Source of the DNA: Candidatus Thorarchaeota archaeon
GTDB taxonomy: Archaea; Asgardarchaeota; Thorarchaeia; Thorarchaeales; Thorarchaeaceae
Length of the DNA: 30,326 nt
Assembly: GCA_029855935.1 (NCBI GenBank)
Contig: JAGSHN010000013.1
Span: 1 to 30,326, forward strand
Reading direction: 5' to 3'
The notes under the pieces are model-generated. The model saw only the letters and a program-made list of their open reading frames with translations, was not told where the DNA came from and searched no databases. This document shows, piece by piece, positions 7,312 to 8,372 of the stretch. The position numbers and the translations under genes were made by a program. Numbering within the stretch: the stretch's first letter is position 1; each line of letters starts with the position of its first letter.

Positions 7312-8268
7312 ATGACTCTACGTGACATAATCTACGATGAGAGCATTCGATTCATTCTCTCTGGCGGAAAGGGCGGAGTCGGCAAGACGAGCTGTGCCGG
7401 TGCCATTGCGTTGCTGTCCGCCCAGAGAGGTTTCCGGACCCTTGTCATCTCCACCGATCCGGCTCACAGCCTGAGTGACAGCTTTGACCAAGACCTCTCT
7501 GGTGGCGACATTGTCGAGATCAAAGGTGTCGACAACCTCTGGGGAATGGAGATTGATTCTGAGAGAGGAATGAAGGAGTTCCAAGAGAGTCTTGGACAGA
7601 TCGGTGGACCCGAGTCGGCGATGGCGTCACAGTTCCTCGGTGGTACTGACTCACTGGCACCTCCGGGCTCCGATGAGGCAATGGCCTTTGGCAAGATGCT
7701 GGAGTTCCTGTCCGACACGAGCTTCGACAGAGTGGTCTTTGACACCGCTCCGACAGGCCACACACTCAAACTCCTTGAGCTTCCTGATCTACTCGACAGC
7801 TGGCTAGGGAAGCTACTCACACTGCGTCAGCGATTGAGCTCGATGATGGCAGGATTGAGGGCCTTTCTTGGTGGTGGCCAGGAGGAGGACAGGTCCTGGG
7901 AGATGCTGCAGTCGACAAAGGAGAAGATTCGTCAGGCGCGAATAGCTCTCGCGGACCCAAAGACAACGCAGTTCGTGGTCGTGATGATTCCTGAGGCTAT
8001 GGCCGTATTTGAGACACAGCGTCTTTTGGCCAGTCTTCATGCCTGGGATATCCCAGTCAGCAACATAATTGTCAATCAGCTGGTCCCGGAGAATCCCTCG
8101 TGTACGTTCTGCACGAACCGCCGCCGGATGCAGCAGGCCAATCTTGCAGACATCAAGGACCTGTATCGTGATCTTCACATCACCGAGGTACCGCTCTTCG
8201 ACCATGAGATTCGGGGGATAGAGGAGCTTAAGATGCTCGGTGGCATTCTCATTGGTGCGGAGGACTGA
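7312..8268 (+). CDS. Get3/TRC40/ArsA-family ATPase, Get3-like single-domain type
   Basis: GKGGVGKT, STDPAHSLSD, DTAPTGHT, a Met/Leu-rich helical insert (LLDSWLGKLLTLRQRLSSMMAGLRAFLGG) and C-terminal CxxC (CTFC). One ATPase domain; no ars genes nearby. Confidence 0.9.
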   Translation: MTLRDIIYDESIRFILSGGKGGVGKTSCAGAIALLSAQRGFRTLVISTDPAHSLSDSFDQDLSGGDIVEIKGVDNLWGMEIDSERGMKEFQESLGQIGGPESAMASQFLGGTDSLAPPGSDEAMAFGKMLEFLSDTSFDRVVFDTAPTGHTLKLLELPDLLDSWLGKLLTLRQRLSSMMAGLRAFLGGGQEEDRSWEMLQSTKEKIRQARIALADPKTTQFVVVMIPEAMAVFETQRLLASLHAWDIPVSNIIVNQLVPENPSCTFCTNRRRMQQANLADIKDLYRDLHITEVPLFDHEIRGIEELKMLGGILIGAED

Positions 8269-8273
8269 ACGCA

Positions 8274-8372
8274 ATGAGGTTCTCGACGAAGCGAAAGATC
8301 ATATCAATACTGTTCTTGTTGCTCTTCCTCGCATCTCTTGCTGCTGCCGCGTATCTCGTCTTCAAGGGATGA
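8274..8372 (+). CDS. 32-aa single-pass membrane microprotein (not in ORF track)
   Basis: ATG 8274 to TGA 8372 encodes MRFSTKRKIISILFLLLFLASLAAAAYLVFKG. SD GGAGG at 8259-8263; starts 5 nt after the Get3 stop. Basic N-terminus followed by a 22-aa hydrophobic stretch. Confidence 0.7.
   Translation: MRFSTKRKIISILFLLLFLASLAAAAYLVFKG

Follow-up and report, generated by a model that had tools for sequence, protein, structure and literature searches.

We analysed a 30,326-nucleotide (nt) stretch of DNA from Candidatus Thorarchaeota (forward strand of contig JAGSHN010000013.1, positions 1 to 30,326; hereafter the window), taken from a 2.97-Mb assembly of 32 contigs that is 97% complete (GCA_029855935.1). 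The subject is a pair of genes on its plus strand. The first, get3 (7312–8268, stop codon TGA at 8266–8268), encodes a Get3/TRC40-type ATPase of the ArsA family with 318 amino acids (aa). The second, an open reading frame (ORF) of 32 codons at 8274–8372 (ATG at 8274, stop codon TGA), encodes a microprotein of the tail-anchored, single-pass type, MRFSTKRKIISILFLLLFLASLAAAAYLVFKG, with 32 aa. The sequence between the get3 stop codon and the microprotein ATG is the five-base spacer ACGCA, and a Shine–Dalgarno (SD)-like GGAGG lies within the final get3 codons (8260–8264, plus strand), leaving 9 nt to the ATG. Upstream, an A/T-rich, TATA-like stretch picked out by eye, TTAATACATAATTA (7271–7284, plus strand, 28–41 nt 5′ of the get3 ATG), is a possible archaeal promoter of the get3–microprotein transcript. 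A scan for sigma-70 promoters and intrinsic terminators returned nothing beyond chance, the sigma-70 model being unsuited to archaea, and a single terminator-like hairpin at 8498–8523 was no more than chance expectation. As no plus-strand gene comes after it, the microprotein ends the transcription unit. The initial annotation of this DNA had described an ORF 5 nt after the stop codon of a Get3-like ATPase gene, with a GGAGG SD, a basic N-terminus and a 22-aa hydrophobic helix ending two residues from the C-terminus, and had placed it in an Asgard archaeon; all of these points held.

To establish how the ORF fares in relatives, we located get3 in 40 of them and read the DNA behind it, followed by 80 further named loci. 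An ORF of the same design stood behind get3 in all 25 loci of the window's family (Get3 identity 67–83%), its start falling no more than 3 nt ahead of, and no more than 6 nt past, the end of the get3 stop codon. It was intact in every Thorarchaeota locus with DNA 3′ of get3 (approx. 98 loci), while three more loci end at a contig edge. A peptide-profile scan of 301 Asgard genomes gave one strong match, always adjoining get3, in 72 of the 76 genomes of the window's family (E-value (E) 1e-9 to 1e-16). Three of the four genomes without a match also had no match to get3, and in the fourth get3 lies at a contig end. Run against the 2.97-Mb genome of the window, the 32-position profile found one copy (E 6e-16), with the runner-up at E 0.25.

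The pattern of substitutions points to selection on the encoded peptide. Exactly 32 codons were kept in 24 of the 25 genus-level sequences, in which the mean proportion of differences was 0.79 at synonymous sites (pS, saturated) against 0.31 at non-synonymous sites (pN), and residues K8, F18 and S21 were invariant despite being written with two to four different codons each. The microprotein frame was open in 75 of 76 distinct loci, the other frames in 1–49, and entropy by codon position was 1.31/0.86/1.65, lowest at position 2 and highest at position 3. The initial annotation had named a small-ORF scan behind get3 in Asgard genomes, with the ratio of non-synonymous to synonymous substitution rates (dN/dS), as a check, and absence or frame disruption in relatives as refuting. 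The scan found a conserved ORF with a dN/dS of 0.06–0.41 in the closest pairs, and disruption was looked for in the Thorarchaeota loci and found in none of them. On this pattern of conservation, ORF 8274–8372 is almost certainly a real, selected protein-coding gene.

We analysed the junction between the two genes at 77 distinct Thorarchaeota loci. Measured from the get3 stop codon, the microprotein start lay at −3 to +6 nt in 75 of them, 15 of these being ATGA-type overlaps, and the start codon was ATG (51), TTG (14) or GTG (12). A four-base SD core was present 4–15 nt upstream of the start at 74 junctions, compared with 14.7% at random positions, and a five-base core at 57, compared with a background of 4.5%. 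The two genes share a frame at just 19 of the 77 loci. Since the frame relative to get3 varies (58 of 77 out of frame), the microprotein must be initiated independently and not by readthrough or frameshift. Read from these junctions, get3 and the microprotein gene form a two-gene operon in which the microprotein comes second, with its own start and translational coupling to get3. We further noticed that the acidic C-terminal tails of Thorarchaeota Get3 (..GEE, ..GAED, ..ESEE; 8251–8265 in the window) overlie the GGAGG or GAGG SD of the microprotein; this coincidence, in the window and at orthologous positions, therefore puts the segment under a dual constraint, coding and ribosome binding.

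These data also bear on the view that the ORF is not a gene at all but has arisen by chance where the DNA is rich in T, or encodes a hydrophobic peptide of the type I toxin kind, a leader peptide, or an extension of Get3 by readthrough that would anchor it in the membrane. The ORF product is short, hydrophobic and left uncalled by most annotation pipelines, and the 19 in-frame loci would suit readthrough. Purifying selection and fixed length speak against this view as a whole, and its particular forms fail separately. A conserved readthrough or frameshift fusion that anchors Get3 is ruled out by the varying frame relation, and a leader peptide by the lack of any downstream plus-strand gene to lead. 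Unlike type I toxins, the microprotein gene is single-copy and occupies a fixed locus behind get3 in four classes (see below), which, together with purifying selection and the coupling to get3, rules out that form too. We consider it very improbable that the ORF is anything other than a gene.

Beyond the Thorarchaeota, we read 600 nt behind get3 in 40 genomes that represent 24 further Asgard families. In family f12, a counterpart of 34–39 aa (MKKKQQNL..LIIGSV..LLLSLP..P) follows get3 in 11 of 11 genomes, or in 18 of 19 with a wider profile. In family f15 the counterpart, MGGKVKIKLLALLFLFLVCISFFLYAFLIFSP, was found behind get3 in both genomes read (four of four with the wider profile), and in family f6 in the one genome (with the wider profile also one of one). 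By class-level searches, f12, f15 and f6 belong to three classes apart from Thorarchaeia. The surroundings of the pair are not the same in these lineages. The order in f12 is two unknown genes, get3, the microprotein gene (4-nt overlap) and SUI1, whereas in Thorarchaeota a convergent pair of RpoP and radical SAM genes lies 3′ of the microprotein gene in essentially all loci and the upstream gene varies. In the window, this pair consists of a downstream RpoP-like zinc-ribbon gene, assigned by profile match (8538–8741, minus strand), and a gene for a B12-binding radical SAM protein of 564 aa (8729–10423, minus strand), the 3′ end of which is overlapped by 13 nt by the RpoP-like gene; a convergent intergenic spacer (8373–8537) separates the microprotein stop codon from that of the RpoP-like gene. 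Because the flanks differ between f12 and Thorarchaeota, the get3–microprotein pair is what persists. Its recurrence in four Asgard classes amid different flanking genes supports a functional tie to Get3.

The family has largely escaped notice, much as the initial annotation had expected of gene callers. When ten exact variants were sought in a collection of 15 billion proteins, two were present, both unnamed, and the window's own peptide was absent. A profile search of 1.84 billion representative proteins retrieved 14 clusters, all of 32–36 aa and carrying at most the names 'hypothetical protein' or 'uncharacterized integral membrane protein'. The window peptide matched nothing in Pfam-A at E ≤ 0.01 and nothing in NCBIfam, and 52 members compared with Pfam gave sub-threshold transmembrane noise only (best COX7a, E 0.014, 12 members). 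There was no match between the microprotein and the RAMP4 profile. The ESM Atlas returned unnamed small membrane proteins throughout (best score 0.79) and no lead, and full-text literature searches found no paper tying a Thorarchaeota or archaeal get3 to such a small ORF. Judged by these searches, this is a previously undescribed, nearly unannotated family of tail-anchored microproteins of 32–36 residues, coupled to get3 in Thorarchaeia and three other Asgard classes.

The identity of the neighbouring gene is well supported. Its product matched PF02374 over residues 13–313 (E 2.7e-88) and is of the single-domain (homodimer) form with a deviant Walker A motif. The P-loop reads GGKGGVGKT, with GKGGVGKT invariant among orthologues, and 26 orthologues all retain both cysteines (C264 and C267) of the CxxC motif (CTFC). 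The closest relatives in the PDB, where the matches are of Get3, TRC40 and ArsA1 type, are Chlamydomonas ArsA1 and the archaeal Get3 entries 3zq6 (E 1e-75) and 3ug6 (E 7e-73), and the match to human TRC40 (E 3e-63) was stronger than that to Escherichia coli ArsA (E 7.5e-40). By these comparisons the gene belongs to the Get3/TRC40 clade and is nearer to Get3 than to bacterial ArsA. It is present once in the genome. Archaeal Get3 binds tail-anchored proteins and their transmembrane domains (PMC6593721). Get1, Get2 and Get4 have no recognizable prokaryotic members, and a distant Get1 relative, Ylp1/DUF106, alone has been proposed (PMC5868721, PMC6593721). Profiles of GET1/CHD5, GET2 (PF08690, at E ≤ 0.1) and GET4 did not match the window's genome, a result of little weight since prokaryotic control genomes were silent too. 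The genome does encode two paralogous DUF106/EMC3_TMCO1 proteins (Ylp1, Get1-like members of the Oxa1 superfamily), at 5626–6096 (plus strand) on contig C5 and 4087–4545 (plus strand) on contig C24, both distant from get3; DUF106/Ylp1 is the archaeal relative of Get1 (PMC5868721).

The sole hydrophobic stretch of the microprotein comprises the 22 residues I9–F30 and ends two residues before the C-terminus, and the basic residues of the N-terminus are R2, K6, R7 and K8. Positions 2 (R/K), 6 (K/R) and 8 (K) hardly vary. Some lineages have Ile at position 7, most relatives have three basic residues in a row, and the N-termini in f12 and f15 are arranged differently. AlphaFold2, supplied with the 52-sequence alignment, predicted one continuous helix over residues 3–31 (mean predicted local distance difference test (pLDDT) 89). 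Across the 77 loci, net charge was +3.96 in the first ten residues compared with +0.83 in the last five, which by the positive-inside rule predicts an N-in/C-out orientation. The most hydrophobic 17 residues have a mean Kyte–Doolittle hydropathy of 2.79. With a single predicted transmembrane domain, no signal peptide and a C-terminal anchor, the microprotein is of the tail-anchored type by predicted topology, and its transmembrane domain, ending two residues before the stop codon, leaves the ribosome only after termination. Thirty-two residues are fewer than the number commonly assumed to fit inside the ribosomal exit tunnel. A protein of this total length therefore could not be targeted co-translationally, and insertion would follow its release.

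Conservation along the helix has a periodicity that is strongest at 108 degrees (shuffle p 0.017 over 95–115 degrees). The best-conserved positions are 14, 17–21, 25 and 28, and the conserved face is made up of S11, F14, L17/F18, S21, A25 and L28, S21 being invariant in all 52 aligned sequences across classes. S21 also opens a small-xxx-small motif, S21xxxA25, in which it is paired with A25 in Thorarchaeota, with G or S in f12 and with A in f6. Small-xxx-small motifs are typical of helix–helix packing in membranes.

We propose that the microprotein functions in the Get3 pathway at the membrane, and put the chances of this at about even. The reasons for the proposal are that one helix face is conserved while synthesis is tightly coupled to Get3, and that Get3 is the only conserved neighbour and handles this kind of helix. 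Tight coupling over such evolutionary distances usually marks proteins that act together. The microprotein would be made with get3 by translational coupling from one operon and would itself be inserted post-translationally, in dependence on Get3; as insertion must come after ribosome release, it would be a natural Get3 client. Its short basic N-terminus (R2, K6, R7, K8) would stay at the cytoplasmic face. Once in the membrane, it would most likely act at the site of insertion as a small subunit with an accessory or docking role, and a candidate partner is either of the two Ylp1/DUF106 insertases (Get1-like), whose genes lie elsewhere in the genome. We infer insertion by Get3, contact with Get3 or the insertase, and the role itself from conservation, coupling, predicted topology and linkage.

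Several observations weigh against this proposal. The neighbourhood (RpoP, radical SAM) is also conserved within Thorarchaeota, so linkage inside that group alone is weak evidence and the case rests on the three other classes, from the sequences of which the profile was partly built. The ORF is absent from f8, the sister family of f15. Most Asgard families with get3 (Odin-type f3, f7, f9, f22, f5 and others) had no such small ORF within 600 nt and no clear profile match, and the same 600-nt reading and profile scan yielded none in the Odin-, Loki- or Heimdall-type families. In Jordarchaeia/Freyarchaeota (family f19), six of six genomes had a similar small ORF with an ambiguous start codon (..RRKILAIILILLFLGTLLAALFTAIY; locus L155, 2623–2700, minus strand; also L156–L160), but there it lies well away from get3 and is flanked by a DUF763 gene and a gene for a Ras-like GTPase, so that the protein evidently does not have to be encoded beside get3. 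The alignment of Get3 contained no column that separates lineages with a linked small ORF from those without one. The Get3 tree has lineages with a linked small ORF at three positions or more; its backbone is weak, and it is neutral on a single origin with losses. In addition, the statistic for the conserved face is modest (p 0.017), and the basic N-terminus may be a mere positive-inside topology signal. An obligatory partnership is made less likely by the unlinked copy in Jordarchaeia, by the many Asgard lineages that lack the ORF and by the lack of a tracking position in Get3. Co-folding of the Get3 dimer with the microprotein, both given as alignments, scored 0.00, which we weighed neither for nor against the proposal.

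Two further small ORFs came up in these searches. Family f9 has a conserved small ORF of approx. 50 aa just 5′ of a gene for a VTT/DedA-domain membrane protein (L165, 2472–2555, minus strand; L167, 2426–2518, minus strand); the N-terminus of its product is long and basic, and the single transmembrane helix, at the C-terminus, has a central Ser. We did not accept this Loki-type ORF as a homologue, its profile similarity being merely E ~1e-3. An apparent second microprotein, MEFLLRLARRVSFWKLC (MEFLLRLARR...), encoded approx. 0.9 kb 5′ of get3 in about 40 Thorarchaeota loci (L064, 499–603, plus strand), proved to be the final membrane-spanning helix of the undecaprenyl-diphosphatase BacA/UppP. 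That such a helix can pass as a tail-anchor-like small ORF is a caution for small-ORF filters.

Several of the points above would suit a small membrane protein unrelated to Get3, such as a subunit or regulator of another complex or a membrane-stress peptide, with the shared transcript being historical. Under this explanation the frozen Thorarchaeota neighbourhood, the Jordarchaeia homologue located elsewhere, the many Asgard lineages with get3 alone and the lack of any Get3 residue that tracks the microprotein are all expected. It accounts less well for a pair kept in four classes while flanking genes differ, for a junction selected for coupling (SD in 74 and a gap of at most 6 nt in 75 of the 77 loci) and for the absence of any other conserved partner gene nearby. 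We regard an unrelated role as possible but on balance improbable.

A second alternative retains the link to Get3 and removes the targeting role. The microprotein would be a dedicated or abundant tail-anchored client of Get3, or a regulator that occupies its hydrophobic groove, and would have some other function in the membrane. By its high hydropathy and an anchor two residues from the C-terminus it qualifies as a tail-anchored protein; its 32 aa force post-translational insertion; archaeal Get3 binds such transmembrane domains (PMC6593721); and a copy free of get3, as in Jordarchaeia, suits a client gene. Clients of a general chaperone, however, are not normally held in translational coupling across four classes, and invariant Ser21 and the conserved face point to a specific intramembrane partner, beyond mere hydrophobicity. 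This makes a role as client or regulator alone unlikely.

A third possibility, which is a narrower version of the membrane-side role that we propose, is a minimal Get2/CAML-like receptor or tether, in which the Get3 dimer would be bound by the basic N-terminus (RxxxKRK) and so kept at the membrane, as by the basic N-terminal motif in Get2/CAML, and the single helix would serve as the anchor, possibly beside a Ylp1 insertase. The basic cluster at the extreme N-terminus is conserved, the predicted topology is N-in/C-out, synthesis is coupled to Get3, and the genome has no match to the Get2 or Get1 families, leaving the receptor slot unfilled. Get2, CAML and plant GET2 themselves share little beyond a basic N-terminal cluster and transmembrane domains, and are defined by architecture rather than sequence, namely at least four consecutive basic residues on the cytosolic domain and three transmembrane domains (PMC7817167). 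The microprotein has one transmembrane domain instead of three and usually three basic residues in a row instead of at least four K/R (PMC7817167). Moreover, residues 3–31 form one predicted helix of which approx. eight residues protrude, placing K/R at the level of the lipid head groups, as is typical of a topology signal. The Ile found at position 7 in some lineages, the differently arranged N-termini of f12 and f15, the lack of an acidic Get3 position that co-varies with the small ORF and the unlinked Jordarchaeia homologue count against such a tether as well, and we find it doubtful. Of the initial annotation's suggestion of a partner in an Asgard GET pathway, a coupled, conserved gene paired with get3 in four classes has thus stood, while the Get2-like tether is disfavoured, given one transmembrane domain and approx. 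eight exposed residues.

Stated in its strongest form, our proposal would give the microprotein the part of membrane receptor, or of a subunit of the insertase machinery, in the Asgard Get3 pathway: this one-helix protein would dock Get3 at a Ylp1-type insertase, and clients could not be released without it. This form seems rather unlikely to us. If true, no prokaryote would have yielded a membrane-side component of GET before, and the lineage closest to eukaryotes would possess a protein that is functionally analogous to Get2/CAML or foreshadows it.

Other genes of the window lie further from the pair. Genes for a luciferase-like monooxygenase and Ham1 occupy 5582–7253 (plus strand), 5′ of get3, and among the compared loci this arrangement was seen at the window's own locus only. 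Approx. 3 kb 5′ of get3, a gene at 3570–4175 (minus strand) encodes a 202-aa gelsolin-repeat protein (PF00626, E 8e-28) with DUF7904, of the type described as an Asgard 'eukaryotic signature' actin regulator.

To our knowledge, no membrane-side partner of archaeal Get3 is known, and the microprotein is, from its sequence and genomic context, a testable candidate. Archaeal Get3 homologues bind tail-anchored proteins, and a microprotein apparently co-translated with Get3 in four classes offers a concrete and cheap handle on the membrane step, as its two components, a peptide of 32 residues and a single ATPase, lend themselves to co-expression and joint assay. Even if its function should be unrelated to Get3, it would represent a new, strongly selected family of archaeal membrane microproteins. 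The finding adds a widely conserved, almost unannotated gene family to Asgard genomes, and illustrates that annotation blind to small ORFs hides conserved operon partners, even beside well-studied genes.

Compared with known systems, the microprotein resembles Get2, CAML and plant GET2 in that a basic N-terminus, predicted to be cytosolic in the microprotein, is followed by a membrane anchor, which would give it the N-in/C-out orientation, and in being encoded with, or acting with, Get3. It differs in having approx. eight exposed residues, where Get2 and CAML have a helical Get3-binding domain on a long linker, and in having one transmembrane domain and the basic residues K6-R7-K8 plus R2, with no PF08690 match in the genome. 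With the tail-anchored clients of Get3/TRC40 (Sec61beta, SNAREs, RAMP4/SERP) it shares the lack of a signal peptide, high hydrophobicity and presumed post-translational insertion. Unlike these clients, it has virtually no cytosolic domain, the whole protein being anchor, it sits in an operon with the chaperone, and it shows no similarity to the RAMP4 or Pfam profiles. KdpF, CydX, AcrZ and CcoM are, like the microprotein, operon-encoded prokaryotic proteins of approx. 30–50 aa with one transmembrane helix and a conserved face, translationally coupled to a partner gene and routinely missed by annotation. They bind the product of the adjacent gene. Their partners are integral membrane complexes, whereas the neighbour of the microprotein is a soluble targeting ATPase, so any membrane partner of the microprotein must be encoded elsewhere. 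Archaeal Ylp1/DUF106, with two copies in the genome, is a candidate for the membrane end of the archaeal Get3 route (PMC5868721). Unlike the microprotein, it is an insertase with three transmembrane domains, is not adjacent to get3 and has no homology to the microprotein; a complex of the two is a hypothesis only.

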